Of a stretch of 64,000 nt of DNA, positions 8,848-62,270 are shown in pieces. The translations under genes and the position numbers were made by a program. The stretch spans positions 74,152,001 to 74,216,000 of the forward strand of contig CM060733.1 of assembly GCA_030704615.1 (NCBI GenBank), written 5' to 3'. The notes below the pieces were generated by a model. It had not been told where the DNA came from. It searched no databases and worked only from the letters and a program-made list of their open reading frames with translations. Source of the stretch: Takakia lepidozioides (lineage: Eukaryota > Plantae > Bryophyta). Position 1 is the stretch's first letter; each line of letters starts with the position of its first letter.

Positions 8848-8849
8848 CT

Positions 8850-13830: not shown

Positions 13831-13927
13831 TGTCGCGCACCTCACTTTGGTAAGCTCCCCCTCAAGTCATAGTTACTCGCTTTGATACGCGCGCCTGACT
13901 CCCAACCTGGCCGCCGGGCCAACTTGG
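13831..13927 (-). repeat. 97-bp chromovirus LTR end fragment fused to the gag of the DNMT element
   Basis: TGTCGCGCACCTCAC...CCAACTTGG; shares the TTTGAT/CCTGACT variants with the LTRs of copy 2. Confidence 0.88.
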
Positions 13928-13939
13928 TTTCATTCGCCA

Positions 13940-24939: not shown

Positions 24940-24944
24940 TTGGA

Positions 24945-31459: not shown

Positions 31460-31834
31460 CAATTCTTTTCAGACATGATAGCAAAACATAGACAACAACA
31501 CTAATGCTTATTGCAAAGAAACAGTGCGTTCCAGAGGCCATGCTCCCCACACGAAGTGCACAAGCAACACTCCTCTCTCTTCATCGTAATAATGCTTCCG
31601 TTTTTTTGGCGGCCACTTCTCTTCTTGGATATGAGGACTCCCGTTAGTTAGTGCAATTCTTTTTAGACAAGATAGCAAAACATAGAGAGCAGCACTAATG
31701 CTTATTGCAAAGAAACAGTGCGTTCCAGAGGCCATGCTCCCCACACAAAGTGCACATGCAGCACTCCTCTCTCTTCATCGTAATAATGCTTCTGTTCTTT
31801 TGGCGGCCACTCCTCTTCTTGGATATGAGGACTC
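31460..31834. repeat. Tandem duplication, period 194 bp
   Basis: 31460-31640 and 31654-31834 are near-identical; the minus strand gives KHYYDEERGVL(L/H)VHFVWGAWP twice. Confidence 0.88.
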
Positions 31835-32089
31835 ATGTTAGGGTTCGAGCCGCTACCCAGCCCAACTTGAGACTTAGGGGATGGGAAGGACAAAGAGGGT
31901 AGCGTGACAGCATGCGCACCTTGATGGTGCAATCTCCTCCCTGCGAGGATGAATCGCAGCAATTCCTCCATGCCCAGATCCCAGGGACAGGACGACGAAG
32001 GCCAGGCTTTTGCGAACAAGAGAGCAGGGAAACACGCGACCTGCTGTCACCAGTCTCCAGCCATTTACCGGTGGCTGTTACTGGTTAAA

Positions 32090-32191
32090 GAGAGAGAGAG
32101 AGAGAGAGAGAGAAGACTTTGGCCGAAGCCGGCGTAACTAAGAGCCACTTCACTTGTGGCTACTGCCCCTGTCGGGGGTGGGCCCTATCAT
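32090..32191 (-). mobile_element. Solo 3' tail of the Dualen-like LINE (extreme 5' truncation, or a SINE) with a (CT)n tail
   Basis: Matches 52031-52114; flanked by TGGTTAAA direct repeats at 32082-32089 and 32192-32199. Confidence 0.8.
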
Positions 32192-35160: not shown

Positions 35161-36800
35161 CACCAGTGACTGGGGTCAGAAAAAAGTATTCATTCCACAG
35201 CTTCTCTTTATCTCTGTTACCTGTTTTTGGTTGCTTTCCTATTGTGAGGGAAAAACAGGTTGAAATGTGCTGAAGAAGGTGCCTTGATTAGCAGTGCCTG
35301 ATTTTATCAATTGTGCCGCTGCTGCTGCGACTTCCAGTTGACCATCTACCCATGGAGGTTTCTTGTAGCTATTGATCCACAGGGAATCACAGGTACTCTT
35401 GTGCTTGAAATCTCGCCCTCTTGGATGAATCTGGACCCACACTCTATCCTTGCTCCTTCAGCTATCCATGCCTCTGCACAAATCACGTGTATACATCCTT
35501 CTTACATCCTTGCCTTGCTGCTAGCAACTGACAATGACAGCCTAGACTTGTTCTAGGAAACACACAACTCAACTCATCACATTAGTTCCTATGCTAAATT
35601 CCGTCTGCTACTCTCTGAATTGCATCTGCTTCTCTTTGTAGTCCAACGGGCATTCACCTTTTTGTCTCCATTGTCCCACCATTGGCTGGGGTCGGAAAAG
35701 TGTTCATTCCAAAGCGTCTCCTCATCTCTGTTATCTGTTTCCTACTGCCACATCGGCAGTAACTTGTCAAAGTCACTCCAAACCATCACAGATCCACCCA
35801 ACGAGCTAACGCATAGAATTCAATATGCATCTCAGGGCCGAGTCTGATGAGAGGGCAAAACAGGCTGAAATAGGTTGAAGAAGAAGGTGCCCTCACCACA
35901 TTGTCCTTGACCTTGTGTCATGACCCAGGAGACCATCAACCCAAAATGATCTCTTGTGTGTGCTGCTTGTGTCTGTAGTCAGGTAATGTGCGATTGGTCT
36001 GTGACACGGTGCAACTAAGCGGGTCACAACCTCCTAAGACCAAGCTGACTCTCCCAAGAACCTTGTAAACATCAGGATGAATACCAAATCGTGGTACTAA
36101 CTTGCCCACATTTGCAGGATGGACAAACTTCTTCACATGTTACAGTCTCCAATGCCTCCATCCCACATCCATGGTCGGCAAACCCTCACAATGATGGTGG
36201 GCACAATTCCAGCTTTCAATGGCAGCATGGACCTCTCTAGAGCTTGAAATCCGGCTCTCTTGCATGAATCTGAACGTAACTTATTCATTCCAGAGCTTTT
36301 CCTTGTCTTTGTTATGTGTGAAAAAGGTTCTACATGTAGAATTTCCCTCTGAGATCGCTGTGTGAAACCCCTTTGCGCTCAAGGACGCGGGGGCATTGTC
36401 AAACCCTCCCCCGCGCACACCTCTCCCGGTTATTTTCCGGTTATTTCCGGGCATTCCGGGCAGCCTGGGCAGATTCCAAAGAAATTGACGACAACAGGTG
36501 GCTACGAAACGTGGCGACGATGATGTGGCACTATGGCACCCTATACTTGCTCTACGCTAAACTAGCTTCCGACCTTCGGTCGTCGCTAGAATTTCAGATG
36601 TTTTGTGGGCCCAACAGACTCGCTCCCCCCTCTCGCTGCCCTTGCGCGCGCCACGGGCGGCTCACCCAAGCATACTGACCCCGCCGGGTAGGGGGTGCCC
36701 CACCCGTCGCGACCCCCTCTCCCACATGCGGCCCCCGCCGCAATCACACATGCTCGCATTGAAATCGCTAATATCAAACAATGAGAAGCAGCCTATATAA

Positions 36801-38657: not shown

Positions 38658-40433
38658 ATGCCCTACGTACCTCCACATTTACGGGCGGGAGCCGCCAGTA
38701 ATGCAATAGAGGTGTTAGGAACCCGGGATAATGGCCGTAGTGGGAGCAGAGACTATGGAAGTGGTGGGAGAGACTACGGAGGCGGTGGCAGGGATTCTGG
38801 AGGCAGCAGAGACTACGGGGGAAGTTTTGGGGGCTCGCGGAGGGACTCACGCGATGTGGCCAATGGTGGTCATGGCAATGGTTCGAGTAGAGATAGTAGA
38901 GACGGAGGTTCATCTCTGAAAAAGGGAGAGGGGAGAGGTGTGGCATTGCCTGATGTGGTGTGGCCAAAATGGCAGCCATCAGAGCGCATTCGTCGTTTGC
39001 AAGAGGACCAGATTGGAGAGGTGAGGGCGCGGCTGAACGTGGATGTTGAGATAACACCAGGCACGCCTCCGGCGTCTGCCCCCATTGAATCTTTTGAAGA
39101 TATGTGTCTCCATGCCAGCATCATGAAAGACATCACCTTTCACGAGTATACTACTCCCCACCCCATCCAAGCACAGGCCCTGCCGGTGGCTCTGTCAGGA
39201 CGTGACCTGCTGGGGTGTGCCGAGACCGGCAGCGGGAAAACTGCAGCTTTTGCTCTTCCTATGATTCAGCATTGTCTGATGCAACCTCCTGTCCGACGTG
39301 GTGATGGGCCGCTGGCATTAGTCTTGGCACCAACCAGGGAGCTGGCCCAACAGATTGAGAAGGAGGTGAAGGCTTTCAGCCGATCAGCGGATGGCTTCAA
39401 AACTGCAATTGTAGTAGGGGGCACCAACATTGGTGAACAGCGTTCCGAGCTGAGAGGGGGAGTGGAGGTAGTGGTGGCGACACCAGGTCGCTTCATTGAC
39501 CATTTACAGCAGGGTAACAGTTCGCTGACCAGGGTGTCATATGTTGTGTTGGACGAAGCAGATCGAATGTTGGACATGGGGTTTGAACCCCAGATTAGAG
39601 AGGTAATGAGGAACCTTCCAAAGAAGCATCAAACACTGCTGTTCAGTGCGACTATGCCTGAGGAGATTGAAGCTCTTGCACAGGAGTATCTGAACCAACC
39701 TATAAGGGTGAAAGTTGGAAGAGTGAGCAGCCCTACTGCCAATGTTACCCAGACCCTGGAAAAAGTAACTGAGAAAGAAAAGATAGACAACTTGCTGGCG
39801 CTGCTGGTGGAGGAGGCAGCACAAACAGAGAAGGCTAGTCAACCATCTCCTCTCACCATCGTGTTTGTGGAGCGCAAGGCAAGGTGTGATGAGGTCACTG
39901 ATGCATTGGTGGAGCAGGGTCTCAAGGCTACAGCGCTGCATGGAGGCCGAAGCCAAAGTGAAAGGGAAGCTGCACTCCGCGATTTCAGGAAGGGAACCAC
40001 CAGCATTCTTGTGGCAACAGATGTTGCATCTCGAGGTCTTGATGTTACAGGTGTTGCGCATGTAGTCAATTTAGACCTTCCAAGGACAATGGAGGATTAT
40101 GTGCATCGAATTGGAAGAACAGGCCGTGCAGGTGCCTCAGGGCGTGCCACCTCATTCTATACAGATCGCGATGTTTTTCTGGTTGCCCAAATTCGAAGGG
40201 CAATCACAGAGGCAGAATCAGGGAACACTATGGCATTCGCAACTGGGAAGGCTGCAAGAAGGAAGGAAAGGGAGCAAGCAGCAGCATTCCGAGAGGGAAG
40301 GCTTGCTCCAGTGAGAGTGGCACAGATCGGGGCCACAACTGTGCGGGTGGACGACAAATATAAGCATATGTTGGCTCCATCAGTGGATACCAAGAAGGGT
40401 GAAGGAGCAGCAGATGATGCTTGGGAAGACTAA
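38658..40433 (+). CDS. DEAD-box ATP-dependent RNA helicase, DBP2/DDX5-like, 591 aa, intronless CDS
   Basis: Starts MPYVPPHLR; Q motif, AETGSGKT, PTRELA, TPGR, DEAD, SAT and HRIGRTGRAG all intact. A 5' UTR intron ending ...CGCAG at 38651 is possible. Confidence 0.96.
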   Translation: MPYVPPHLRAGAASNAIEVLGTRDNGRSGSRDYGSGGRDYGGGGRDSGGSRDYGGSFGGSRRDSRDVANGGHGNGSSRDSRDGGSSLKKGEGRGVALPDVVWPKWQPSERIRRLQEDQIGEVRARLNVDVEITPGTPPASAPIESFEDMCLHASIMKDITFHEYTTPHPIQAQALPVALSGRDLLGCAETGSGKTAAFALPMIQHCLMQPPVRRGDGPLALVLAPTRELAQQIEKEVKAFSRSADGFKTAIVVGGTNIGEQRSELRGGVEVVVATPGRFIDHLQQGNSSLTRVSYVVLDEADRMLDMGFEPQIREVMRNLPKKHQTLLFSATMPEEIEALAQEYLNQPIRVKVGRVSSPTANVTQTLEKVTEKEKIDNLLALLVEEAAQTEKASQPSPLTIVFVERKARCDEVTDALVEQGLKATALHGGRSQSEREAALRDFRKGTTSILVATDVASRGLDVTGVAHVVNLDLPRTMEDYVHRIGRTGRAGASGRATSFYTDRDVFLVAQIRRAITEAESGNTMAFATGKAARRKEREQAAAFREGRLAPVRVAQIGATTVRVDDKYKHMLAPSVDTKKGEGAADDAWED

Positions 40434-40829
40434 TCTGTGGTAGGCCAGATTACCTGCTATCTTTCTGAAGCAAACACTATGGAACCGCTCTCAGTCTATC
40501 TATTTCTTCTGAAAAGGAAGCAAAATGTCTGATCTTCTCTCTTCTTCCCTCACTCGCTGTAATTCCACAGTGAATGTTATTGTGATTTAGCCCTCCCTCT
40601 GCCTCTTGCGTCAGAAAGCTATTTTTCAAAGGAATATACAGCCATGGCGGCATTATGGAATGAAATATATATGCATCCATTCTTATCCCTTTATCCTTTC
40701 AATGATCATGGCTAGTAAACCCCACTCTAATCAAGTTTTCAGAGAGCAGTGAAAGCAAAAGAAGAATAGCATTAGCCACCAGATTATCTGCAACATGCGG
40801 CCAATTTTGTAGGATGTTTGTTTCTGGAT

Positions 40830-41700
40830 AGGTTTGAGTTTCATTTTTACATTTGGTTTGAACTGGTCCATTAGGTATCCTAAATAATCAGATGCTATTA
40901 AAAAAAGGAAGGGAGAAAGGGGACAACCCTGCCTTCCAGACCGCAGCGGTGGAAAGGAGTTGGAGAGGTGCCCATCGGGTAAGACCCTGCTTGAACCAGA
41001 GAACAGGAGGATTTTAATCCGTTCCAAGAACTCACTGTGGATGCCACATTTTCGAATGTCCTGTAACAAGAAATCCAAGTGTATCCTATCATCGAACATG
41101 AGTAAGGCCAGGGGCTGGTTAGAAGAGGAGGCAAAATGTAGAGCTTCGTTAGCTACGAATATTATGTTTTCTAGAATCATTCGCCTCTTGACAAAACCTG
41201 TTTGCTCCGGTCTAATCATAGAGGGCAAAACTTTCTGAAGCCTAATCTCTAGTGCCTTAGTGATAATTTATAGGCCACCTTTCATAAAATGGATGGGGTG
41301 GTAGTTAGCTATATTCTCTTGTTCTCTCTTTTTTGTATATAAGTGCTATTATACCTTGAGACATTTGTGATGGCATTATTTTCTTATTAAGGATAATGTT
41401 TGCCATGTGAAGGAAATCTTCAGAATTGTGATCCAAAGGGATTTATAGAATTCCGCCGAAATTCCGTCCATCCTTGGGATTTTAGATCTTTAAGACCTCA
41501 AAGGGCATCCTGGAAGACTTCCATCGAGAATTCAATGTTCAAGAAGGCTGATTGTCTCGAGTTAGAATTGGGGGATCTTACTGCAAACCAAGTCCCTAGC
41601 CTTGGTACCCTCCACTGTAAATAGCGCAGTGAAGAAGGATGCAGCTATGGCAGACATCTTCTTAGGTTGAGAGGGAGAGACATTCAAGTTATCCTTTAGG
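40830..41700 (-). mobile_element. Decayed L1-type LINE RT fragment
   Basis: IRPEQTGFVKRRMILENI and RQGCPLSPFLF. Confidence 0.8.
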
Positions 41701-41708
41701 TTAAGAAA

Positions 41709-42774
41709 AGAGAGAGAAGACTCCTGCCGAAGCCGGCATAACTAAGAGCCACTTCGCCTTGCAGCTACTGCCCCATTTCGCGGGGGTGGGCCCTATGAAG
41801 AAAGCAGGTGTCCAGGGGACACCGAGTAACCGAAGGGAAGATGGTACCAATGGTACCTAGGGTATTGTAGGATACCTATGGGTACCGAGAATACCTAGGG
41901 AGTTGGGGGAGGGTTGGATTCAAGTTGTCGTTTGTTGGTAATGATAGCTGTGAAAGAACGAAGCGTTGTGAGGTGTATGGCTTTAAAGCATTTACGATAG
42001 GGGTAATGGGAATTTTAAAGTTTTTATGGAGTGCAGAGATATTGGCATTGTGGATGTCCCCTCTAGTGTCAGCGGTGATGACAGTAAGTGGGCATGTTAC
42101 CTAGCCCCGTTGGCAGATAACAAGGATGAGCGGGGCATATTTCTGGCATTTTTCAAGAGTTGATGAGCTGGGATAGCGGTCATGACAGTATGTGAATTCG
42201 ATAAAGTGTATGGTGAGGGTTGGGGATGGGGCAGTGGCCGGAGGGGCGTTTATGGGAAGGCCATGGACTAGCAGAATGTTTGGGCATAGTCTGGCGGAAC
42301 ATGTACAAGATAAGTGGGGTCGACAAACACAGGGGCGTAGCCATGTTGGTACAGTATGGTCGGAAGTCTACCTTGGTAGGTGTCGGCATTAATAAGCGAG
42401 AACCATTAGTTTCAATGCGGCGTAGTAGGAGTTTATGAATATGTCAGACTGCGTGGTTATGCCTAGTAATACGAAGGCCGTAGATGACAGGGTGAGGACA
42501 CTGGCTAAGGAGGTGGGGCCAGGTATCACGGGTCGCGTGGATGTGGGAGTAGAGTGGGCAGTGCGGGGATGGGTAAAGGTGTGGCCAAAAAATGTGCTTA
42601 CCTGGTGGGCATATCTGAATTTGAGTGTTTGTCGTATTTGTACATCAGTTGCGGCTTGAGTGTGTCGAAAATGGTTTGACAGCTTATGATGGAGTACGGT
42701 GGAATGCGTCCATTTTTTATATGTATTTTGGTATGACTAATAGAAGCTGAGGCTTGTTTGTTGGCTTCTCGAGT
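41709..42774 (-). mobile_element. 3' fragment of the Dualen-like LINE (zinc finger, RLE region, structured tail)
   Basis: QIRQTLKFRYAHQ, HFIEFTYCHDRYP; tail at 41709-41796. Confidence 0.85.
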
Positions 42775-43640
42775 AGAGATAAGACTCCGGTCGGAGGACC
42801 GGCGTAAATAAGAGCCATTTCGCCTTGCGGCTACTGCTCCCTTTTGGGGGTAGGCCCTATAGAAAAAGCGGAGCATGTTTTTGTCGTTTGTCTAACGTGG
42901 AGGAATTGGGGTAGAGATCGTGGCAGATGTGAATTCAATAAAGTGGATAGTGAGGTTTGGGGATGGTGCATTGGGTGGCGTGACATGTATGGGCAGAACC
43001 TGTATAAGTAGAATATTCGGATATAATCTAGCAGGGCATGTGCAAAGTGAGTGGGGCCGGCAAGTGCATAGGAGTAGCCATGATGGTACAGTGTGATCAG
43101 GAGGTCTGCCTTGGTATGTACCAGCGTTGATGAGTGAGAACCAACGAGTTTATGATGCGACGTGGAGAAGTTTATGGATGTGCCAAACTGCATGGTTATG
43201 CCGAGTTATATGGAGTCCATGAATGACGGGGTGAGTACATTCGCTGAGGAGGTGGGGCCAGGGGATCACGGACCATGTGGGTGTGGGAGCAAAGTGGACA
43301 ATTTGGGGATGGGTATAGGCTTGACCAGAAGATATGTTTGCGTTGGTAGCCCATGTACTGTGCATATTTAAATTTGAGAATTTGACGTATTTGTGCATCA
43401 GTTGCAGATTTGGTGTGCCAGAAGTGGTTTGATAATTTGTGATTAATAATTTTGATAATTTAGAAGTGTGGATTGCGTCCATTTTGGGATGTGAATTTTG
43501 GTGTGACTAATAGAGGCCGAGGCTTGTTTATTAGCCTCCCGAGTAAGTACGGTTAAGATGTTGCATATTGGTCTAGGCTCAGGGGGGTCTGGAACGGGGT
43601 GTATGAGCCAGAATGGGTGGATGTGTGCAATGTGAATGGG
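42775..43640 (-). mobile_element. Second, diverged Dualen-like 3' fragment, head-to-tail with the first
   Basis: WPHLLSECTHPVIHGLHITRHNHAVWHIHKLL; tail variant at 42775-42862. Confidence 0.82.
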
Positions 43641-43739
43641 GTACGATGGGGGCCAAAGACACTAAAATCGTCCAAAAATACCTATATGAAATCATTGAGA
43701 TAGCTTTCTGATACTACTCTCTGAAACGTTGCAGGTGCG

Positions 43740-46831: not shown

Positions 46832-49800
46832 ACGAAAGGGGAAACTCCCGTTGCGGAGTGTTCTGTGTTATTATAACAGAACTCTGCCGCGTCTAAGTGT
46901 TCCACCCAGTCTGTTTGGTCTACCGACACGTAATTCCGCAAGATCTGCTTCACTACAGAATCCACTCTTTCCGTTTGGCCGTCGGTCGTAGGTCGGAAGG
47001 CGGTGCTCATCTTCAGCCTCGTCCCCATCTTCTTCCAAAGTGCCCTCCAAAATTTACTCGTAAACTTTGGATCGCGGTCCGAGACAATATCCTTCGGGAC
47101 TCCATGATGCTTTAAGACGTGGGCGAAGTAAAGTCGCCCTGTTTCCTGCGCCGTTGCTGTCTCCTTGAAATGGCCCATTTTACTGAACCTATCCACCACC
47201 ACCATGATTGCATCGAATCCTTTTGACGGCGGCATAGCAGTCAAGAAATCCATCGAGACGCTTTCCCAAGTCCCCTCTGGAATCGGCAAGGGTTGTAACA
47301 GCCCCGCTTGCTTTTTGTACTCGCTCCGGTTTTGTTGGCATGTGGTGCATGTCTTGACATACTCCTCTGCCTCCTCCCTGAGTTTGGGCCAGAAATACTC
47401 TTTCTTCAAGAGTGCCGCAGTGCGCTTGGCTCCGCCGTGGCCCGCAAGCGGGCTATCATGGCATTCTCTCAAGAGGCTATCTCTGATCCCTCCCTTCGGC
47501 ACGTAGAGACGCTTTTGCTTATACCGGAGCAGTCCATTTCGCAAGTGGAATTGCGATTTAACCCCCATCCTCAAGTCCTGCATCACGGACTTTGCCAGCT
47601 CATCATTCCGGCAAGCCTTCCGGATCTTCCTTTGGAGCGCCGTCTCACCCCTGTACACCAACCAGAGCTGCTGCTTTCTACTTAAAGCATCGGCCACCAC
47701 GTTGTCCCGTCCCAGTTTGTACTGGATATCCACGTCGAACACCGCCAAAGTGTCTTGCTACCTAAGTTGTTTTGGGGACAACTTGGGCTGCGTGGCAAAA
47801 TACTTCACCGTGACATTGTCCGTGAACACCTTCACTGGGTTGGAACCAACATAGTGGCGCCAAAGCTCAAGACAATGCACCACCGCCTTCATCTCTTTCT
47901 CGTGCGTCGGCCACCGTCGCTCCACTTCATTCAGTTTCTTACTTTCGTAAGCCACTGGACGTCCATCTTGCATCAGTACACCCCCAATCGCGAAGTCCGA
48001 CGCATCTGTATGAATCTCGAACGGACGATCAAACTCCGGGATTTTCAAGACTGGAGCTTCCGCCATCCGCTACTTCAATTCAGCAAAAGCTTGGCCACAA
48101 AAAGTGTTCCATGCCCATACTTTGGATTTACACAGAAGGTCTGACAGCAGCCCCGCGATCTTGGCGAAATTTCTCACATACTTCCGGAAATAGGAGGCGA
48201 TTCCTAGGAAGGATCGCACTCCCGGGACCGAAGTCGGAGGCTCCCGGTCCAAGATTGCCCTCACCTTCCTGTCATCCATTCTGATCCCATCCTGTGTAAT
48301 CACATGCCCCAGGAACTCCACTTTTGTGACCCCGAATTCGCACTTTGAAGTTTTGGCATACAGCTTCCCTTCCCGCAATTTCTGGAACACCCTTTTGAGG
48401 TGCTCCAGGTGCTCCTCCTTTGTTTTCGAATACACCAAGATGTCGTCGATGTAAACGATCACAAAGTCATCCAACCACTCCTGGAAAGGCGCTGGCGCGT
48501 GCTAAAGTCGCGGAGCGTTGGTAAGTCCAAAAGGCATCACCAAGAACTCATATGAACCATAATTGTCATGCACGCGGTCTTCTCCTCATCTCCTTCCGCC
48601 ACTCGAATTTGATGATAGCCGGAGCGCAGATCGATCCGGCTGAAATACTTCGCTCCTACCAACCGATTGAAAAGGTCGTCGATCCTTGAAAAATGGTACC
48701 GGTTTTTGATAGTCACCTTATTCAAAGCCTTGTAATGGACACACATCCGCAGCATCCCATCCTTCTTGTCTGCGAATAGCACCGGGGCTCCGTAAGGTGA
48801 CTTACTTGGCCGGATGTACCCCTTTGACATTAGATCTTGAGCTGAGTCTTCAGCTCGACCAACTCTCTGTGGCTCAACCGGTAGGGCGCCCTTGGCAGGC
48901 GGTTCTGATCCCGGTATCACCTCAATCTTGGTCAACACCTCTTCGCGTGGCAAGCCATTGGTAAATCCTCCGGCATCACATCCTGGTATTTTCTCCAAAA
49001 TCCCCTTGATCCAATCTGGGCTCGGCTCCCATCGCCTTCTCCCATCACTTCTCTAATGTAGAGCAAAAACTGGGGCTCGTGTGCCTCCTCCACGGCCCAC
49101 TTGCTGACAGAAGGTTTATTCGCCCTCCCACGGGTTTGGGCGTTTCTGACACTCGTAAGACCTCGCCACCATTCCCACATGGCAGCGTGACTACTCTCTT
49201 GCGGCCATCTATGACCGCTCCGGATTTGCTCAAAAAGGTCATCCCCAAAATGAGATCCACTCCATCGATCTCGCAGATGGTGAAGTTCTCACGTCCCTCC
49301 CAACTCCCCAGTTGAAGAGGAACATCAAACGCCAACCTTGTCGCCAATTGCGGTTCTCCTTTGGCAGAACGCACCTTAATAGAGGCCCCACGTCACTTGT
49401 CGGGAGTCCCAGCTTTTGTGCCGTTGCCGGTGTCATGAAGGAGTGCGACGCTCCTGTGTCCACCAACAACGACACGTTAGTTCTAGATATTATCCCATCC
49501 ACGAACAATAACTGACTCCCATTACGTAAGGCGCCAGTTTCCTGATACAACTCACAAGAAAATTTGCCTACCTTGCAAGTCCTGGCGACCACCGCTTCCA
49601 CCAAGCGACTGATGGTATCTTCCGACAGCTCTGTGGTTGCCTGAGTCATGTTCAATTGCCGGGGCTTCGTGCACTTCTTGGCCATGTGCCCGGGCTCCCC
49701 GCAATTGAAACACACTCCATCAAAGGTCGCCTTCTGTCCGCCATAGGCCGCTCCGCCCGCTTTTCCTTTCGAAGCACCGGGTGCCGCCTTGACTTGTGAG

Positions 49801-51477
49801 GGCCCTCCCTTCGATTTCCACGTGCCATTGTCGTCACGTGGCCTATCCCACTTCTTTTCCGGTCGGAAGGAGTCACCTTCCCGCCGGGACTTCTTGTGGT
49901 TCAGCTCCGTACGGCCTTGTCTTTCACCCTTAGGGACATCCGAGAAACATTCAGCCCTCTCAATTGCCTCGTTCAAAGTCTTAGGTGGCTTCTCCTCCAA
50001 CTTCCGCCTGGCCCATGGGGCCAGGCCCCCCACAAAGTTGAAGACCATTTCTGGTTCTGCCATGTCCGCGACTTCGAGCAACAACACATTGAAAGCTTGG
50101 ACATATCCTCGAATGTCATCTGTTTGCTTCAAATTCCTCATCTTGTCCCGGGCAAGCCAGGACGCGTTGAGGGGCACAAATTGTCTCTTCATCAATTCCT
50201 TGAACCCATTCCAGTTCAAGGTTTCCGGGCTTGGGCCTCGGTCGTGAAGGCGTTTCTGCCACCATTGTTGAGCATAGCCCCTCAAATAGGTGGGAGCCAC
50301 TTCCACTCGATCCTCGTCACTCAACTTGGCCGCCCGGAAGTACTGCTCTAGCTCCAAGAGCCAGGTGTTGAGTGCCTTCCGATTTCGGACGCCCTCGAAG
50401 GTGCCGGGTTCCTTAGGCTTCACCTTAAACTTTGCCTTAGTGGAAGTGACATTAGCCGCCTTCAACACGTCTTTCAACGTCCCGCCAAATTGCGCCAACA
50501 ACCCTTCCCAAAAGGCTGCCGGCATGGGAGGCATCTGTTGGTCGGTCGGAGCTCTCAGGGATTCCTCAGGCTCCGACTCCTCAGATTCCTCCCGCTCTTG
50601 AGCTTCCTCAAACGGCCGCCTCGGTGACACGTCGCCCCCATCGGGCTCACCAGGATCACATCTTTTGGGCCGTTCCGCTTTCACTTTGGCTTGCCCGACC
50701 CCATGATGAGGCCAATCCCAAGGACGATCGCGTACGAACTCTATGCTCTGATACCAAGTGTCGCGCACTCACTTCGGTAAGCTCCCCCCTCAAGTCATAG
50801 TTACTCGCTTGATGCGCGCGCCTAACTCCCAACCTGGCCGCCGGGCCAACTTGGAGCTCCGGCTGCTCACCGGGACATAACGGTCCCCCTTTGATCTCCC
50901 AAAGAACCCTCCATCGATTTAGAACCAGCAGAATTCCCTTGGTTGTTGGCAGTCCGGAACAGCTCCCCACTCTTTGGTCGCTTTCCGGCTCGCTCGCTTA
51001 CTCACTAGTTTTTGGTCACCAACGGGCTGCACACGTTCTCGGGGTTACTACTCCTATATATACTTCTGTAGCTGTCCGCGGGGGTTTCACAAACAACCAT
51101 GCCATTTTATGGCGAACCACCACGAACACCCTCGACTCCCGTGATGAGTCCGCGGTGAGTCTTGGCCCACCCACCACGGCCCCTATGGACCGTGATGAGT
51201 CCCAAGACTCCCTACGACTCCCACCACGAGGTCCCGCCCCAGGTGAGTCCTATGCCACCCCCACAAGTCCGGCTAAGCTACCACCACCCCTCGTGGAGCC
51301 ACCCCCGCCGCAACCCGGTGTGCGGGGCTCCACCTAGTGAGCGCCTCCGCCTCCTTGAGTGCCTTGGGCACTCAAGGGTGCTTCAGCCCCCCATACCTAT
51401 CGCTGCCACTGCCCCCACCACAGGGGCAGCCCCTCTTGTGTCCCGACCCCTTGCCCTCAAGGCAAAGGGCCGCGACA
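46832..51477 (-). mobile_element. Chromovirus copy 4, inverted 5' part (5' LTR 50759-51477 to mid-integrase)
   Basis: Breaks at ATGVSPFV; flanked by TTCCA at 51478-51482. Confidence 0.95.
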
Positions 51478-52114
51478 TTCCATGCACATGTAATTCTCAA
51501 TCATGCACTTGTCCAACTAGACTTTGCCCAGATATTATACTGGTGCAGGGCTTATCCATGACTACCCTACCTCCTACCACACCATCCCCATCACTCACTA
51601 TCCATTTCATCGAATTCACATATTGTCATGACCGCTACCCACATGACTCTATCCTAGAAAAATGGCAAAAATATGCCCTACTCATCCTCGCTATTCGCCG
51701 ACGAGGATGGCGCACCGCCCCTCTAACCGTCATCACGGCGGGTACTAGAGGTGGCATACATAATGCCAGCATCAATGACTTGCATAAGAACTTTCAAATC
51801 CCTATCTCCCCTATTCACAAATGTTTCCAAGCCATCCACCTCACAGCCCTCCGCTCTCTCACAACTATTATCACAAATAAACAAAAACTAGAATCCAATC
51901 CCACAACATTACCCTAGACACCCCTGGGGCACCCTCCGGTGTCCCCCCCCAAGGGTACCCTCCTGTTTTTTGGCACCATAGCACACATACCCCTGGTTCC
52001 TAGGTGTCCAACCGGACACCTGTGTTTATTATAGGGCCCACCCCCGACATGGGGCAGTAGCCGCAAGGTGAAGTGCCTCGTAGTTACACCGGCTTCGGCC
52101 GGAGTCTTCTCTCT
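51478..52114 (+). mobile_element. Displaced 3' end of the Dualen-like LINE: restriction-like endonuclease and tail
   Basis: PCTCNSQSCTCPTRLCPDIILVQG...IHFIEFTYCHD...KWQKY, stop at 51917; structured tail at 52031-52114. Confidence 0.87.
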
Positions 52115-52149
52115 GTTTGCCTTTCGGTCCATCCCTGTAGTTGTTGGTT

Positions 52150-54382
52150 TTGGTCTATGGAAAAGCACCTCTGGTGCCGACAAGTTGGGCCACCCAGGAC
52201 GTCGAGGAACCGGCAGTGGCGGCGGTACTGGAAGAACGCGAGCGTTTGTTGAAGCTCGCAAAGTACAACATTGCCAAAGCTAGGAATCGGAAGCGGAGGG
52301 AAGTGAAGTTTGAGGCAGGTACGGAGGTCTGGTTGAACATCAAGAATTTCCGACTACCTCCGGAAGTGAGTCCAAAGTTCGTACCTCCGTATGCAGGACC
52401 CTTTCGCATCCGAAAGTTATGAATGAGGATGTGTATGAATTGGAGCTGCCATCGAACAGCAAGGTGCATCTAGTATTCCACGTCTCCCTTTTGAAGCCTT
52501 ACTTCAAAGATGAAGCGCGTCCGAATCGGCATCAAGTGTTGCGTCCGCCACCTGTGCTATTGGATCATGAAAATGAACCTGAATACGAGGTGGAGGCAGT
52601 ACTTAAGTCGAGGAGGTTCAAGAACCGAGAAATGGAGTATCTCGTCAAATGGAAGGGCTATCATCATGTGGAGGCATCTTGGGTGCGTGCCTCAGAAATG
52701 GAAAACGCATCCGAGGCGGTTGCAGTTTTTGAAGGGTGACCTCAAAAGCGAAAGAAGCGTTGATGGGGACATCAACCTTGGAGCGTGGGGGAGGAAATGC
52801 ATGCTTAGCCCGGCTTAGCTAGCTTAGGAATCCGATTGCAAAAACTTGTATTGTACAAAAATTTGTTATAAAGGAAATGGGTTCCAAATGTTGTGCGTCC
52901 TATTTTGTTTTGAATGTGGATGCATGGTGTGGTTGGCTAGTGTGTAGAATGCATGCTAGCTTACAAAAGTGGGAGAGGTAAATTGGGTTAATCGTGTGTT
53001 TGCGCAGTGCCAAAATCGGGTGACTCCCATCCAAGGGGCAAGGAAACTTGCGCCTTCTTTAGGAGTTCACGTGCTAGTGCGCACCTGGCGCGTGCGCATA
53101 CTATAACTGCGCTACCGAGGGGTTGCTTTGTAGTGCGGGCTAACGCGGAAGCTACGTGCTTCCGTTCACGTACTATAATCGTGTAGCCTCGGGACGAAGT
53201 CGTAGTGCGGCTTCGGCGTGTTCCCGTACCTCAGGCCAGCATTCCAAGGCGGACCCAATTGTAGTGATTGGGGCGTTCAAGGTTATCTTCCTAGTCAAAA
53301 GAGGTTCGAGGTGAACCCTTGCTCAAGGTGATGCCAAAAGCGGCATCATGAGCAGTCGCAAGCAATGTTGTTGCAGTAAGGCGATTCGATCCTCGGGGAG
53401 GATCGTTCCTTGGCCTTGAAGTAGGCCAAGAAGAGTGCACTGGGAGGAGCTGGAGAGGCTCCACCCTTGACCGGGACTTGGAGGAAGTCGGCCGAACTAG
53501 CTAGTGGAGAGTAGAGTCAAGTGAGGGGTTTGGTTTCTTTGCCATGGGACGCCATGGTACGGAAACAAACTCCTTGATGTGGGACGCCACAACTTGGATG
53601 TTCGTTTCCACAAAATGGACAAGCCGATTAGGACATCGACTCCCTATTGGTAGGGGTGTGTGTAGCGGCCCTTTGCCTTGAGGGCAGGGGGTCGGGACAC
53701 AAGATGGGCTGCCCCTGTGGTGGGCAGTGGCAGCGATAGGTATGGGGGGCTGAAGCACCCTTGAGTGCCCAAGGCACTCAAGGAGGCGGAGGCGCTCACT
53801 AGGTGGAGCCCCGCACATCGGGTTGCGGTGGGGGTGGCTCCACGAGGGGTGGTGGTAGCTTAGCCGGACTTAGTGGGGGTGACATAGGGCTCACCCTGGG
53901 GCGGAGACCTCGTGGTGGGAGTCGTAGGGAGTCTTGGGACTCATCACAGTCCATAGGGGCCGTGGTGGGTGGGCCAAGACTCACCGCGACTCATCACCGG
54001 GAGTCGAGGGTGTTCGTGGTGGTTCGCCATAAAATGGCATGGTTGTTTGTGAAACCCCCGCGGACAGCTACAGAAGTATATATAGGGAGTAGTAACCCTG
54101 AGAACGGTGCAAGCCCGTTGGTGACCAAAAACTAGTGAGTAAGCGAGCGAGCCGGAAAGCGACCAAAGAGTGGGGAGCTGTTCCGGACTGCCAACTACCA
54201 AGGGAATTCCGCTGGTTCTAAATCGTTGAAGGGTTCTTTGGGAGATCAAAGGGGGACCGTTATGTCCCGGTGAGCAGCCGGAGCTCCAAGTTGGCCCGGC
54301 GGCCAGGTTGGGAGTTAGGCGCGCGCATCAAGCAAGTAACTATGACTTGAGGGGGGAGCTTACCGAAGTGAGGTGCGCGACA
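52150..54382 (+). mobile_element. Chromovirus copy 4, 3' part (integrase end, chromodomain, PPT, 3' LTR 53661-54382)
   Basis: Resumes at LVYGKAP, exactly where the inverted part stops; followed by TGGAA at 54383-54387. Confidence 0.95.
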
Positions 54383-57300
54383 TGGAACTAGCCATGGTGG
54401 GACAATGTGATTGGGTGGGCGGCCTTGGTATGTGCCTGCGTTTAGGAGTGTGAACCATCTGGTTTCGGCGCGGCTAAGAAGTAGTTTGTGGATATGCCAG
54501 ACTGCTTGGTTGTGGCGAGTGATATGGAGGCCGTATATAATGGGATGTGTGTATTGGCTGAGTAAGTGTGGCCATGTGTCACATTCTTGATGGGTGTGTG
54601 AGCAGAGTGGGAAATATGGAGATGGAAAAAGACGTGGCCAAAAAATGTGCTTGCGCTGGTGGCCCATATACTGGGCGTATCTAAATTTAAGGGTTTGGCG
54701 GATTTGTGGGATATGGCATATGTCATGCGGCCACTCAACAAGGCGTTGCCCTCCGCCTACCTGGTCCCGCCACAATTCTATGTGCTGAACTTATGGAAAT
54801 TTATGAGGCCATATCAAGGCTGGACGCTTTCCCTCTCCCCTACTATATTTTCACTGACAGTCTTACTTCACTCTTCCTTATCAGGAACCACATCGCTCGC
54901 CCTTCATCCCACCACCATCACCTCGACCAGAATCTTATCATTGCCATTGTCCAACTAGCTCTATCCAAATCCCACCCCATCCACTTCCCACCCCATCCAC
55001 TTCCGCAAAGTCCGCTCGCACACCGGGATACATGGTAACAATGCTGCCGACATACTTGCTCAAGCTGGCGCTTCCAAACCTCATGTAATTGCATCTGATG
55101 ACCCTATTCACATCGCCCATACTCACCCATTTTGGTTCATACACCCCGTCCCAGACCCACCCGCACCCAGACCTGTTCACAATCTCCTTGTCACTCTCTC
55201 CCGGGAGGCTAACAAACAAGCTGCTACATCAATTAGCCACACTAAGGTCCACATTCAGAAGTGGACACAATCCACAGTGCTACACCATAAACTATCAAAC
55301 TACTTTTGGAATACCAAATTGGAGTGTACGAGAGATCCATCCGTGTAGTGAGAGTGGGAGAGGGGAAATCTAAGGGGTATGATTTGTAGGTACTTTTGGG
55401 GGATGGTGGGTGGGGCTGTGGTAGGGGCGGTATGCGGTGGGCGTGGCAGCGCTTTTAGCCATGCCTTATTAGGTTTGATATTGACGAGAGGGGAGGGGAT
55501 ATTTTTGTAATTGGGGGTGGATGGGTTAGTCCTGTGTGGGGGGGCAATGTTAGCTTTTATTTTGTGGGTTTGTGTGAGCAGTTTATGGAGAAACGCAATG
55601 CGCATGAAGGAATTCGGGCTCATTTCGGATGTCTCTCTGGAGTATCTCTTCCGCCTCCGCTCTCTTTTCATTGGGGTTGCTTAATCTTGCATTTAGTTTT
55701 TTGTGGTTTCTCTGCTTTCATTCTACAACTTTGCTTGCTATCTCGTAAGTGTCTCCAGGCAAGTAAGAAGCACGAGAAACAATGCTATGGATTCCCAACC
55801 CTAAAAGTTTGAAAATAGTTGAGACTTTCACTGTCAGAGTGGAAACCTGTGATGCAGGGGGAGTATTTATCGGAGGGGTGCGCTGAACGAGTAGAATAAG
55901 GGTTAAAGATGGTTCCTTCTGCTGGAGGTATTTGGGGAGAGGGGGGGGTGTGTGCATATTTGAGTTGGTTTGGTTCAATAGTGGCTAGCAGATGAGCACC
56001 AATAGGGAGGCGTAGGAGGGGGTGGGAGTCGTCGGGCCATTTTTGTTGGGTGAGTATAAGTATTGTGAGGGCACGTGGAGATGCCTGGGCGGCTAAACGC
56101 GCCCATTGGAGAGCTTCATGAGTCGGGGATCCGGGGGGGGTGAGCAAGGCCTCTATCAGACCAAGTATGTTGTGTAGCGGTGCCTGTGGGCCCGAAGATG
56201 CAGTCTCTGTGGTGTGGGCTGGCAAATGTGGTTAGTTCCATAAGGCATATAAGAGGGCTGGAGTAGTATGAGTGGGTGAGTTGGAATGAGTTAATAAGCA
56301 GTGTGAGAATGTCTTGAGGAAGGGTGTTGTGAGCGCATGCTTGTGCCAATCGATTGGGGAGCGGGGTTCTTTCGAGGGGGGTGTAGTGAGGGGAGAGAGT
56401 AGAGCCCATTGTATTTGTGGGAAAGAAATTTGAGGAGTCCTTGGTAAATGATACCTAAGCAACCAGGATCATTGAAGGCTTCTTTTATTTGTGTACCAAG
56501 TGTGCGGGCGTAGGAGATGATTAAGGGGCTTGAGTCGATGCCATAGCAGTCGGTGGGGAGCTAGGGCATTAGGGGTGCTAGTTGGCAGGCCACATCCACG
56601 CTTTGTGAGCTGAACAATATTTTTGTCAAGTTTTTGATGTCTGGTAAGGAAAAAGGTGAGGCATGGAATAAGTATTGGACTTGGGTTTTAAGAACGGATT
56701 GTATAATGGAGAGTTTAGGTCTGATGGCAATTGGAGATTTGAGGAGGGCCAAGCTTGTGTTGATTAGTTTGGATGTGGTAGAGGTTTTTTGGACATGCCA
56801 TGTGAGGGAGGGGACCGGCTGGATGCCTAGGTATGTGTATAGTTCGTCTGGCCCTAGGAAGGGGAATGGTTTGTTTTGATAGTGGACATAGAGTTTACAA
56901 TGGGAAGCAATGGCAGATTTGGTGAGCCGGCTGTGGTGTGTGGCAGCGGTGATGGCGCATTTGTGGAGGCTGAGTTCCATGCCTGACCATAGGTTGAAGC
57001 GATGTAATTTGGTGACTTATCGGTTTAGGTGTTGCGGTTTATGTGCAAGGATGGCAAAAATCATTGGCATATGCTGCTGCTGAGATATCACTGGAGGAGG
57101 TTTTGTAATGGTATCCCAACTTTCCACGAGCAAGCCATCTGAGGAGGGGTTCTAAAAAAATTATGAATAGGTATGGACTGAGGTTGTCATCTTGGATGGT
57201 GCCCCGTAGGATTGGGATAGGGGGAGTGGAGCCGTAGTAGGCCCCTGTATACTCCGTGGTACTATTCCTATAAATGTTGCCGATGAGCTGGATTGCGTCT

Positions 57301-60300
57301 ATGGGGTATCCAAGTCTGTCATGATGGCGAGTAGACGGCCATGGTCAAGGGAGCCAAAGGCATTTTTAAAGTCTATGTAGAGAAGGTAGATGTCTTGTTT
57401 TGTGAGTTTAGCATCTTCTAGTGCAGAGATGACATAATATGCAAGCATTGGAATCTAGGTTTGGGTGTAAACAGTTTGAAACAGTGGGTGTGTAGGATGA
57501 AGACGCTTGGGCCCGTATTTCTTTGTTGATGGCCGTGGGGTCGGTTATTAAGTGGCCTAGTCGATGTCTAAGGCAGTCTATAGGTGGGTTAAGTGAGGGG
57601 TTAAAGATGGCTTTATGTGCTTTTTTGGGGTGATCATGTAGTAGTTGGTTAAAGGAGGAAACAATTTTTTTATGATTGTCTGCGGATTTTTGTTTGGTGT
57701 GTTGTATGCGGCTTTCTTTGCGTCCGTGCCCAGCTTGGATAAGGCTGCGCTCCATTTGGGTATGGCTGAGGGGTCCGTAGGTGGGGGCATAAGAACATGA
57801 CATGAGGGTGCCAAGGTGTTTAAGCAGGTAATACGAGGGTCGGATCTCCAGTTGTTGTTTGGGTGGGTTGTAAGTGATTGGGGTATGATGGTGAGAGCAC
57901 GTCGGATCGTGTGGTAGGTGTTGAGGTGAGAGGTCCAGGCTCATTTTTGTGTGCATGTTAGGTAACCGCCGTTCTGTGTTGAGCGGGTGGTTTGTGGGAC
58001 TTGTGGAGGAGCGCAACACGTGGCAAAGACTCTTTTGGTCATTTCTTTCATAATGGTTGTGAGCCTAAGTTCGGCTTGTAGCCAAGTGTCTTCCGGGTAT
58101 AATGTTAGATTCTTGTGGGAAAGAATATTAGAGAGTTGTACTATGAGCGGTGTGGCTGTTGGGTGAAAGAGGCATTGAAAGGCGTCTATGTTACGCTGAG
58201 GCAACAGGACAGTATCCGGGATTGTAGGGGTGGGGTGTGTATAGATGGGATGGGTCGGAATGGGATGAGGGACGAGGGGAAGGTTACAGAGACAGGGTAG
58301 TGGTCAGAGTTACAAATACTATTGATGTGAATATGGCTGTTTAGGTGTTGTGGCATTGTATTCTGTGTTTTAAGGTAGAAACCATCCAGGAGGCTTAAGG
58401 AGGAGTAGTTAAGTCCACATTGCCTGGAGTAGTGGTAGTCGACGGGTATATATTGGAATTGATGTTGTTGGATGAACTTTGGCCATGCGTGGTCCAGGGG
58501 TGATGGGGGTTTGTGTGTGCCATTGTAGGTGTGGCCAAGTAAAGCTATGTCCCTGTTAAAGTCGCCAGCTAATATGAAATTGTGGTGTTGCGATGTTGGT
58601 TGGGTGACGGTATCTGAAATTGTATGTAGGATGTCCGGGATCAACGGAAGATCATCAATATGTGACGGCATGTATAGATGAATAAGAGTAATGGGGGGGG
58701 GGGAGCAGGCAAATGTAATTAAATTATTTGGAGGTGTGACCGTAAGGGGATAGGTATAAATATTTTGGCGGTGGTGCTGGAGGAGTGATGTGTGCAGAGG
58801 ATGCCTAGCGCGACACCTCCTCGGGAAAGGTGGTAAGGGGCGGATCGTCGGGAGAGGCATTGTGTGGCAGTTAGGGGGTTACCGTATAACATATGATATG
58901 CCGGAAGACTCTTGTTTAAGTAAGAGCTATTGAGGGTGTTGGTGTTAAGCTTGGTTTCTTGTAGGAGGATAATATGCGGGGAGACGGAGTCGGTAAGAAG
59001 GTGCATGAGACTTTGAATCCCACATTCCAAGTAATGATGCAGAGTGAGTGCGCATGTTGGGTAGGGGTCGCATGGGGGTGGTGAGGTGTTCCATTGGGTG
59101 AGGGGATGCCGGTAGAATTAGGGGTTTGAGGCGGAGGTGAGGGAGGAGGGGTGTGGTCTGGACGAGGGTTGATAGCCGGGAATTGGGGAGTGGGCTTGGA
59201 GGGTGGCCTTGAGAATGTTGTCTGACAGGAATGGGAATTTCTTCGAGGTAACGTGGAGGTCATGGGTGGGGTTGGAGAGGCGTTCACACCTAATTTTGTG
59301 GGCATCCCCGGGATTTGATTGGAGAAGTTGAAGCGATGCATGCAGTTCTGCCAAGTAGTGAGGAGGTGCTATATAGTTTTTGGGGTGGGCTGGTAGTTGT
59401 TGTAGCTTGTCTAAAAGTGCTCGGACTTGTGAGTCTATTGCGAGTCATGAAGTAGTCATTACATAATGTTGGTAGTGGGGAGATGGTAATGATTAGGGAG
59501 AATAGAACATGTGTTGTGGCGGGTATTGGGTGAGTTTGCAAGCAGCTTGGGCAAGTGCAGGGTGGTCACAGGTAGGAAGGCCAAAAGTGGCTATTGGGTA
59601 TGTGGTTGCGGGTTGGGTGATGGATGAGTTGGTGAGAAGGGGCATGAAGTGGTCAAATAAATGTTGATATGTTGGCATGAGTGACACAGTGTTGGTTTGA
59701 AAGTAAAGCATATATCTATCTTGGGGGTCTATAGGGAGGTCATTGATCATATTATTGATACTATCTGGTCCCGGGTTGGGATGAATGTTACCGCATCTCA
59801 TAAGTACGAGTAGTGTACAGGTTAATTTAATTTATTATGATGTGATGGGGGGGTGGTGGAGGGAGTGTTTGGATGTTAGGGGCTGTAGTTGGCACCGACC
59901 GTGGGGGCAGTGTGTTAGGAGAGAGATTTTGGGAGGTGGATTTATGTAGGTAAGTGTGATAGAGGGATATACAAAGAGTGCATCTAGGTTGGGTATGTCT
60001 GTATAGGCACTGACGTGGGTGAGAGTGGAGCTAGTGGCGGTGAAGTGTGGGGGTAGGTGAAGGGGTAGTATGTTTGTATATGGGGACCTACAGTGTGTCC
60101 TGCATGTATGGATGGTAAACCAAGGATGGCTGTGGGTGTGGTGTATTAGTATATTAGGGACGAGAAGGGGAGATAGATGGCTAGGATGGATGTAGTGGTG
60201 TGGGGGGGTGAGCGTGTAAGTCGTGGGACGTATGTCGTAAGTAGTTCAGCAGGATGGATGAAATCCCCTGAGTGGGATTTTAACGTGGATGGATGCGGGT

Positions 60301-60880
60301 CTTGGCGTATAGATGAAGTATCGGTTATGGATGACGGGGGGGGGGGGGGGGGGATGGGGGAGGGGGGGGCGGGGGTCATGGCCGGATTGAAATGCACCAC
60401 GTGTAGGGGACGGGGTGGTGGGGCAATCGGGGTACGAGCGGGCGGGGTGTCGCGAGTGGCGAGTGTTTGAAGGGGAGTTAGGTAGAAGAGGCTTGTGTAT
60501 GCCTTGCCAGGAGCTCCGCAATCGTGTGGAGAGACGATCATGGTGCCAAGAGTGAGCATGGCGAGTGTTTGTAATGAGTCGTGCGTCGCCATGGTGAGGT
60601 AATGTAGGAGGGGGCTGAGAGGTGTCCTAGGATTGAAATGGTAACAACAGTGAAGTCTTTGCATTGCTTAGAATGTAAGAAGAGTACAAAATTGGTGTGG
60701 GATAGAACCCACTGAAGAACAAAGGGGTCACATAGCGAGCAAGACAGTACAAGCCGTGGAGTAGAGGGTTGCAGGAACCCAGGGAGCTGCTTCATTTTAC
60801 TGCAGGTTTATGCAGTAGTCACCGGGAGGGTGCTTGGTGCGTGACTAGCTTGTTGCGGGTGTTGTGGTGGTGCAGTAAGC
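54383..60880 (-). mobile_element. Dualen/RandI-like LINE body (2A-like, APE, RT, RNase H, zinc finger), decayed; 5' limit approximate
   Basis: APE motifs ITWNV, LLQETK, LAGDFN, SDHYPV (58280-59050). RT motifs YIDFKNAFGS, GTIQDDNLSPYLF, AYAND (57060-57410). RNase H motifs YTDGS, CAEL, FTDS, GNNAAD. Also DTWPHLL and ITRHNQAV. Confidence 0.88.
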
Positions 60881-60949: not shown

Positions 60950-62270
60950 TGTTTGCTCGGGGCTGAGCACCAAAGGGTACCACACATGCCTGCATTGTGG
61001 CGATGAACTTGATGCACATAGCTCCCGCCATCTTTGCAAGATGGTGTATCCCAATTACCACAAATTTCTTCCTATGAGCCATTCATGGAGGAAAAAAGAC
61101 ATATAATTGTTTGATGGCAAAGAGGAGGTACATTCCCCCCCTGTGACACCATCCGGGCAGTTTTGGGAAGACCGATGGAAGGAGGCCCATGCGGACACGG
61201 TCGGTGAAGTGGAGGTGCCCGGCATAAAGCGACTTTCAATCTTCTACGAGTTGCCATATTGGGCGGTTACATATATCCACAAAAACACCATCAATATCAT
61301 TATGCATGCATGTGATATTACACATTTTGTATGAGTTACATTGTCACTTTCACGCCCGCGATATTTGTGTAAGTATTTGTGGGTGGGGATATATTTAGGA
61401 CTTGATGATTCGCCATCTTCTAGATCCCATGCATATTGAGAAGAATGTTTGCTTGTCCTTTTTTCGGGTTCTTCATGGCACGCCGGCAAAGAAGGGAGTG
61501 GCTGCAAAAGGAGATTCTCTCAATGTTAGAAAGGAGCTTGAGGAGCAGGGTCGCATGCCCCATCTATGGGCCTTAGAAAATGGTGTGGACCCAAAGGGTG
61601 TTGTACGGTGGAAGTATGGGCGCGCACCTTGGCAATGGACAAAGGAGGAATACAAGAAAGTGATAGCCACCATAAGTGTTGTCCAAACACCAACTGGTTA
61701 TGGGTCATCCCTCTGTATGAAATTCAACGAAGACGGGGCCATGGTTTGAAGTCTCATGACTACCACAATATTTTGCAAGACATCTTTCCCATTGCAATAC
61801 GTGGGACATTGACTCCCGAGGTTTGCGAGACAATCTATAGATTAGGAGGCTTGTTCCGGTGGATTTGCTCCAAAGAGTTGGATGAAGCGGATTTTCCACG
61901 CATGAAAAAAGAGACGGCGGAGGTAATGTGTACATGTTGGAGATGCACCTTCCTCCCTCCTTCTTTGACATCCAAATGCACTTGGTAGTGCACTTAGTGG
62001 AAGAGGCTTTCATTGCCGGCCGAGTTCATTCTCGGTAGATGTACTTCCTTGAGCATTATATGAAGACTTTGAAAGCATTTGTAAGACAAATTGCGCACCC
62101 GGATGGTAGCATGGCGGAGGGAAAACGAGGTGGAAGATGATTCAGACGTGCCTTTTGCTGACCAAACCATTTATGACGATGACTCCGATGACCAAGAAGA
62201 CTTGCAGCTTGATGAGGACGAAGAAGCTCCGGATGCTGATGTTCAAGTTGATTAGACACGTAATCAAAGC
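60950..62270 (+). mobile_element. CACTA/En-Spm transposase (TnpD-like) pseudogene
   Basis: GLSTKGYHTCLHC; SIFYELPYW; intron; RHLLDPMHIEKNV; LKSHDYH; PPSFFDIQMHLVVHL; HPDGSMAEG. Confidence 0.92.

Follow-up and report, generated by a model that had tools for sequence, protein, structure and literature searches.

The 64,000-nucleotide stretch of genomic DNA analysed here (hereafter, the window) carries, within positions 51478-60880, the main copy of one long interspersed nuclear element (LINE) that very probably represents the Dualen/RandI type, namely, a dead, rearranged element combining an apurinic-like endonuclease (APE) and a restriction-like endonuclease (RLE) with a predicted PCIF1-fold domain, likely inactive in its lineage, and residing in what is likely a bryophyte genome. 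With the rearrangements undone, the domain order is 2A-like peptide, APE, reverse transcriptase (RT), methyltransferase-like domain, RNase H, CCHC finger, RLE and (CT)n tail.

Architecture and rearrangements of the main copy

Domains were placed by six-frame reading and by profiles built from intact relatives. The profiles match APE (59035-58276, minus strand), RT (57433-56615, minus), RNase H (54706-55081, plus), the finger with its RHN motif (54700-54377, minus) and RLE (51504-51899, plus), with best independent E-values of 4e-13, 2e-29, 4e-13, 1e-13 and 2e-23, respectively, so that all domain pieces named in the first-pass annotation are present. Pfam alone yields only weak matches on the broken pieces of this copy; weak hits to KptA_kDCL, PSII and DUF5426 in the window were set aside as chance.

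Reading from the 5′ end on the minus strand, a C/A-rich region in which no domain was found (59835-60850; the 5′ edge is approximate, with a high-depth repeat starting near 60848) precedes a 2A-like ribosome-skipping motif (59766-59813), a hydrophobic run followed by G-N-I-x-x-N-P-G-P that is also present in the closest relatives, L001 and L007. The APE (58276-59035) is spread over three frames and retains the motifs WN, ETK, GDFN, D and SDH. The frameshifted APE-RT linker and the start of the RT region (57441-58270) stop at a deletion, on the other side of which lie the RT core and thumb (56400-57433), also frameshifted, with YAND as the catalytic motif. Next comes the predicted PCIF1/CAPAM-like adenine methyltransferase fold (55800-56400), interrupted by a frameshift near 56130 and carrying the motifs SYYSSPLI and AHPP, with no aromatic residue after HPP. 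RNase H, located between RT and RLE, has all its catalytic positions; its first strand (YTDGS; 55321-55345, minus) keeps the original orientation, and the remainder (AEL, FTDS and HTGIHGNNAAD), together with a linker, occupies an inverted block on the plus strand (54712-55320). The CCHC-type finger and RHN motif (54383-54710, minus) precede the RLE; two finger cysteines are altered in the main copy, the pattern CPLC...H....C being intact in copy 3 (see below). The RLE (51478-51917, plus) starts with the TTCCA duplication and runs to the stop codon. It had been described as a PD-(D/E)xK-type nuclease; the RLE assignment stands, but the motif is PD...E...K..KY as in R2 rather than a literal ExK. 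The 3′ untranslated region (51918-52114, plus) consists of a conserved terminal 85 bases and the (CT)n tail, placing the 3′ end of the LINE at ~52114, inside the interval.

Stops and frameshifts abound in the main copy, where no long open reading frame (ORF) is left unbroken. Given that short-read contigs match 57621-58256, 56200-56592 and 56566-56930 without gaps or differences, these breaks are real, and sequencing error can be ruled out as their cause.

Between the finger and the RLE, a chromodomain-type Ty3 element has been inserted, with its 3′ part at 52144-54382 (plus; 3′ long terminal repeat (LTR) 53661-54382) and its 5′ part at 46832-51477 (minus; 5′ LTR 50759-51477), the latter forming the left part of an inverted block. 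The two LTRs are 96.6% alike, and the 5-bp duplication TTCCA, in the LINE sense, is found on both sides. As proposed in the first-pass annotation, removal of the Ty3 element joins ...PPWLVP to CTCN... in frame. The inverted block spans 46832-52143, as indicated by comparison with 18000-24941, where an intact copy of this Ty3 reveals the break; this inversion moved the RLE and the LINE 3′ end to the plus strand. The second inversion (about 54712-55320) flipped RNase H just past its first strand. In each of four sequencing runs from one sample, 3-4 contigs connect 54708 with 55318 on opposite strands, from which it follows that other copies are uninverted; in addition, 12-15 contigs per run depart from the window at 54708 with letters resembling copies 2 and 3. 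Neither inversion junction of the main copy was seen among the contigs listed, and the junctions may or may not have been made by the assembly.

The loss of N-terminal RT subdomains suspected near 57450 is borne out: compared with the relative P0127, ~158 aa are missing at 57441/57433. Because 9-10 contigs per run continue with other letters at this point, the loss is likely private to the main copy. A further deletion, of at least 280 aa, probably occurred near 56390, just before the methyltransferase-like domain, given that the gap between RT and the next domain is ~48 aa in the window versus 331-752 aa in relatives and that L001 extends 200 aa past this point with nothing matching in the window. 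The inversions, this probable deletion, the PCIF1-like domain (about 56400-55950) and the 2A-like peptide were absent from the first-pass annotation.

Relatives, phylogenetic position and copies of the LINE

A search with the RT piece returned 126 proteins, and a search with the nearest of these returned 78 long proteins, near-duplicates included. APE, RT, methyltransferase-like domain, RNase H and finger/RLE follow one another in a single ORF in 44 of the 86 relatives of at least 1400 aa, most of the others being cut off, and the long relatives align collinearly with the pieces in the window. Thus, the APE and RLE halves belong to one family and not, as might have been the case, to different ones, in agreement with the original classification as a Dualen/RandI-like dual-endonuclease LINE. 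A homologue search with the RLE piece found no match among 737 candidates of 255-2000 aa, which is weak evidence owing to this length limit. Josephin and OTU domains are present in 23 and 2 of the 86 relatives, respectively, and are accessory to Dualen rather than defining.

For the RT phylogeny, a quick IQ-TREE run was performed on 60 rows hand-picked from 138 (near-duplicates dropped) plus the other LINE of the window, with groups defined by us. The RT of the window is sister to P0127 (support 96) within a clade of seven metagenomic rows (99), itself nested in a 53-row dual-endonuclease group (SH-aLRT 94). Among the members of this group are Haematococcus proteins in which Josephin, APE, RT, RNase H and RLE occur together. 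Seven other LINE RTs fall outside, and the window RT, in a tree free of named L1 or RTE rows, stands apart from these seven. The Haematococcus rows were labelled Dualen by domain content; their accessions are absent from the supplement of PMC13405545.

R2 elements, which target ribosomal DNA, lack APE, RNase H and methyltransferase domains. R2 proteins (PDB 9NL2, 9NL3, 9DOU and 8GH6) are the nearest solved structures for both RT and finger/RLE: the RT of L001 matches R2 with an E-value of 2e-29 and L1 with 5e-17, a measure of similarity only, from which a position of the clade between RLE-only and APE-only LINEs does not follow, and the finger/RLE profile retrieves R2 proteins only (best E 2.4e-5).

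The element shares with Dualen/RandI the combination of APE and RLE, along with RT, RNase H and a CCHC finger arranged in an identical order (PMC5029228, PMC9977147, PMC8226300, PMC4640811), a microsatellite 3′ tail, and the grouping of its RT with Haematococcus elements of the same build. Furthermore, Haematococcus ORF2 proteins, those of Dualen included, have been described with a 2A-like peptide before APE (PMC13405545). The differences are the likely bryophyte host, as opposed to the green algae and cryptophytes of the published reports (PMC8226300, PMC5029228, PMC12747079, PMC4640811, PMC3747384), a (CT)n rather than (ATT)n or (CTATTT)n tail, and the apparent lack of a cysteine protease, which in cryptophyte Dualens is N-terminal and of the C48 family; moreover, the closest relative, L001, has a separate upstream frame. 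This frame, of 1276 codons (L001 49-3879, plus), lies directly upstream of the Dualen ORF, has no Pfam match and is unmatched in other loci; it is a candidate ORF1 of its clade, with strands that, by eye, give the impression of an RNA-binding fold. Two LINE-like proteins among the relatives carry unusual fusions, namely, P0218, with a 2OG-Fe(II) oxygenase (AlkB-like) besides RT and an RLE-like end, and P0217, with ubiquitin besides RT and RNase H.

The first-pass annotation recognized four pieces of the family in 64 kb, and these are confirmed as the main copy and three minus-strand pieces. Copy 2 (41707-42779) is 5′-truncated and forms an unbroken stretch of RNase H linker, finger, RLE and tail, with neither Ty3 nor inversion; copy 3 (42775-43642), head to tail with copy 2, is also 5′-truncated and has a partly deleted RLE. 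In both, the finger is joined directly to the RLE without interruption. The start of copy 2 coincides exactly with the CT-rich tail of copy 3 (42775-42779), although the two copies are only ~72% alike; CT repeats might be preferred as targets, or a template jump might have occurred. The fourth piece (32100-32191) has only the 3′-terminal 85 bases, followed by a long (TC)n tail, and sits in AT-rich DNA, representing either extreme truncation or a partner resembling a short interspersed nuclear element. The folding z-scores of the conserved 85 bases (-1.3, +0.4, -0.9 and -0.4) and the lack of any Rfam match at E 1 leave a structured RNA or ribozyme unsupported.

The (CT)n microsatellite tail is common to the four pieces and to the 140 (run X1), 150 (X2) and 146 (X4) contigs whose sequence departs from the window at 52114, where a CT repeat and dissimilar flanks follow. 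The family therefore numbers at least about a hundred copies, most of them truncated, and ranks far below Ty3, so that the abundance initially suggested is only modest. Summed contig depth, which is not a copy number, declines from the RT and the 3′ part toward the 5′ end.

The PCIF1/CAPAM-like domain

Between RT and RNase H lies a domain predicted, from profile matches and structure models, to adopt a PCIF1/CAPAM-like adenine methyltransferase fold and common to nearly all Dualens examined. In the window, Pfam PCIF1_WW matches 56116-56454 with an E-value of 0.0017; relatives reach 7.7e-15, many of them above the curated cut-off. The domain is found in 60 of the 63 relatives that hold both RT and RNase H, and the exceptions (P0213, P0216 and P0217) lie outside the tree group. 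Profiles of the domain match human and zebrafish PCIF1 (E 7.7e-13; 1.3e-7 with the motifs aligned), with FASPLN falling on FASPLN and NPPF of PCIF1 on NPEY.

Structure models were built for the domain in two relatives, P0261 and L011, and are confident (pLDDT 80.8 and 92.6). For both, Foldseek puts CAPAM in first place, with RNA dimethyltransferases next; for the pLDDT 92.6 model, the top six hits are all CAPAM (TM-scores of 0.67-0.72). An Atlas look-up of the domain of one relative gave scores of 0.85-0.88 to Dam- and PCIF1-labelled clusters, which we treat as leads only. The likeness to PCIF1/CAPAM, the cap-specific adenosine N6-methyltransferase (PDB 6IRV, 6IRW, 6IRX-6IS0), thus extends to the predicted fold (TM-score ~0.7 over ~240 residues), to FASPLN and to NPPF aligned with NPEY. 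Unlike PCIF1, however, the domain resides in a retrotransposon polyprotein, matches the catalytic core only, at ~19-20% identity, and has a degenerate catalytic motif in many lineages and in the main copy. No WW domain turned up in general Pfam scans.

Motif retention varies considerably across the 63 domains: a FASPL-type motif is found in 41, [NDSH]Px[YFW] in 24 (17 of them as NPEY) and both in 23. NPEY occurs on distant branches of the tree and is thus likely ancestral. The main copy has YSSPLI in place of the FASPLN-type motif and lacks the catalytic one, HPP not being followed by an aromatic residue; the Haematococcus proteins read NVPA at the catalytic motif. For some NPEY pairs, the domain is conserved as well as RNase H or better (P0086/P0168, 0.50 versus 0.40; P0185/P0180, 0.85 versus 0.74).

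Adenine-methyltransferase folds, often with altered motifs, are also found in the polyproteins of DIRS and DAM-LTR retrotransposons (PMC4738411; bioRxiv 10.64898/2026.05.21.726589), and the DIRS domains have been placed in the PCIF1 clade (PMC4738411). Those are tyrosine-recombinase or LTR elements. In our scans, the Dualen domain matches Pfam PCIF1_WW rather than Dam. The main text of the bioRxiv report, devoted to DIRS and LTR elements, contains no mention of Dualen, RandI, PCIF1 or CAPAM, although its supplements, which our search did not cover, might list LINEs. A PCIF1-like domain is likewise missing from the Dualen domain lists in the legend of Fig. 4B of PMC9977147 and for Dualen-1_GCr in PMC5029228. 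Our literature search, to which the founding Dualen description and Repbase were external, found no paper linking such a domain to LINEs.

Host genome, alternative readings and implications

The surroundings of the LINE likely belong to a bryophyte, judging from the gene content. A DEAD-box helicase gene (38658-40430, plus), an intact, intronless frame, encodes a protein 82% identical to a liverwort homologue, 83-89% to moss, 78% to lycophyte and ~65-77% to seed plant homologues, and a broken pentatricopeptide repeat (PPR) gene (34137-35260, minus; PPR fragment 34137-34655) lies among transposons. The liverwort and moss identities of the helicase, together with the PPR fragment, make a bryophyte host likely.

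The window also contains other mobile elements and repeats. The chromodomain Ty3 family is present in at least four copies (8013-13927, 18000-24941, 28750-30658 and 46832-54382), 92-96% alike, with many frameshifts, deletions, an inversion and very high summed depth. A second, unrelated decayed LINE RT (40734-41507, minus), located just 3′ of copy 2, forms a long branch outside the Dualen group. Beside the 5′ edge of the main copy, high-depth DNA contains a transposase-like remnant without Pfam match (61300-62000, plus), CACTA-like by its motif. Short tandem arrays with periods of ~96 and ~194 bases are found at 3418-3909 and 31460-31841. Finally, a retrotransposon-like gag/pol remnant (13886-17914, plus) includes a C5 cytosine methyltransferase (Pfam DNA_methylase, E 1.6e-12, at 16680-17597) and resembles the Gypsy-Dnmt3 elements reported in a charophyte (PMC5890265), here in a likely bryophyte.

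Several observations weigh against the identification of a Dualen with an ancestral methyltransferase. APE and RLE are not spanned by any single copy or contig seen for this genome, the link between them being made by reconstruction and by distant relatives, and the contig data come from a sample that is possibly the source of the window itself. The RT tree, the product of a quick search, contains no named Repbase Dualen, R2, L1 or RTE, and support for the main group is 94. Scans for an N-terminal cysteine protease (Josephin or OTU), which the first-pass annotation had advised looking for upstream of APE, gave no match in L001/L007 and none in the window, where the best E-values were 6 and 1.8, although the window copy may be 5′-truncated. 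No target-site duplication of the LINE was found either, the longest shared word being 11 bases in an unrelated place, with the 3′ flank cut by the inversion 30 bases past the tail. As to the domain, the closest relatives (L001-L008, L016 and P0127) all end before it; at loci with RT and downstream RNase H, it was detected in 12 of 15, with no match in L048, L049 and L056; 39 of the 63 domains are without the catalytic-type motif; NPEY differs from the NPPF of PCIF1; and the median identity over 59 pairs is 0.32 for the domain, close to that of the RT-side linker (0.31), versus 0.48 for RNase H.

That the element is a chance mosaic, in which rearrangements united an APE-type LINE with a separate RLE-type LINE, is highly improbable. 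Its pieces do lie on both strands, two inversions, two deletions and the Ty3 insertion have to be undone, and no contig spans the whole; however, a continuous domain is regained at every junction, with RNase H cut inside its own fold and a duplication that matches on the two sides of Ty3, copies 2 and 3 preserve collinearity all the way from RNase H linker to tail, and the same order recurs in the 44 single-ORF relatives. We see just as little reason to suspect algal contamination or an assembly chimera. Although all named relatives are green algae and the host was deduced from a single helicase plus a PPR fragment at a distance of 15-20 kb, the Ty3 that breaks up the LINE belongs to a family represented several times in the window, a distance of ~1.3 kb separates copies 2 and 3 from the helicase gene, and, in run X1, the short-read contigs that agree with the LINE at 99-100% show a single even depth of ~60. 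A far more serious contender, falling only somewhat short of an even prospect, is that the element is a Dualen, but with a PCIF1-like domain that is catalytically dead throughout the group, as suggested for DIRS, and kept for binding or spacing. The motif loss in 39 of 63 domains, NVPA in Haematococcus and divergence near the linker rate all fit this possibility; furthermore, the related DIRS domains have been called likely inactive (PMC4738411), and retrotransposon DAMs gave negative results when tested heterologously (bioRxiv 2026.05.21.726589). Against group-wide inactivity stand the NPEY shared by 17 of 63 domains, the retention of both motifs in 23 and several NPEY pairs in which the domain matches or exceeds RNase H in conservation.

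On the reading of the element as a Dualen, and by analogy with established LINE biology, with which the depth gradient is consistent, the protein would bind its own RNA through the conserved 3′ end, one nuclease would nick the target, and RT would use this nick to prime copying of the RNA (target-primed reverse transcription). RNase H would then remove the RNA and the other nuclease likely cut the second strand, although which nuclease makes which cut is deduced only; early stops of reverse transcription would yield the 5′-truncated copies. Joint action of both nucleases has been suggested to produce the long target-site duplications of Dualen-4b_cRei (PMC9977147). The 2A-like peptide likely frees the enzyme part from the upstream sequence. 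The extra domain is probably ancestral to the whole Dualen group. Where FASPLN and NPEY survive, it might methylate adenine N6 of the element's own RNA or, equally plausibly, only bind, with methylation of new cDNA less plausible; among the catalytic options, own RNA is favoured in NPEY lineages because the nearest structures are RNA enzymes. In lineages devoid of the motif, including that of the window, the domain would persist as a scaffold binding nucleic acid or S-adenosylmethionine, a non-catalytic relic. The boldest version of this scenario is tentative, and we consider it rather unlikely in full: Dualens would ancestrally combine three enzyme classes, with their own PCIF1-like methyltransferase marking RNA or new cDNA, the first in a non-LTR retrotransposon, active in NPEY lineages and repeatedly lost elsewhere, and bryophytes would harbour a separate two-ORF, protease-free lineage.

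Two features make this element more than a routine find, namely, its likely bryophyte host and the PCIF1-like domain common to nearly all Dualens examined. The founding Dualen abstract, by Kojima and Fujiwara in 2005, reportedly names Arabidopsis sequence data as one source, and land-plant Dualens may therefore be on record. Our literature search, outside of which lay that founding description, the RandI classification paper and Repbase, found no paper on Dualen in bryophytes. A Repbase survey from 2012, covering mostly flowering plants, listed only L1 and RTE LINEs in land plants (PMC3472496), and Dualen has been viewed as an intermediate in the switch of LINE endonucleases from RLE to APE (PMC4640811). 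A land-plant Dualen lineage would widen the known range of these elements. The near-universal PCIF1-like domain would be an added part of the Dualen blueprint, of which we found no description, and would place LINEs beside DIRS and LTR elements among the retrotransposons that bear adenine methyltransferases. The coexistence of NPEY-intact and degenerate lineages makes the function of the domain directly testable, including in Chlamydomonas, with its known active Dualen.

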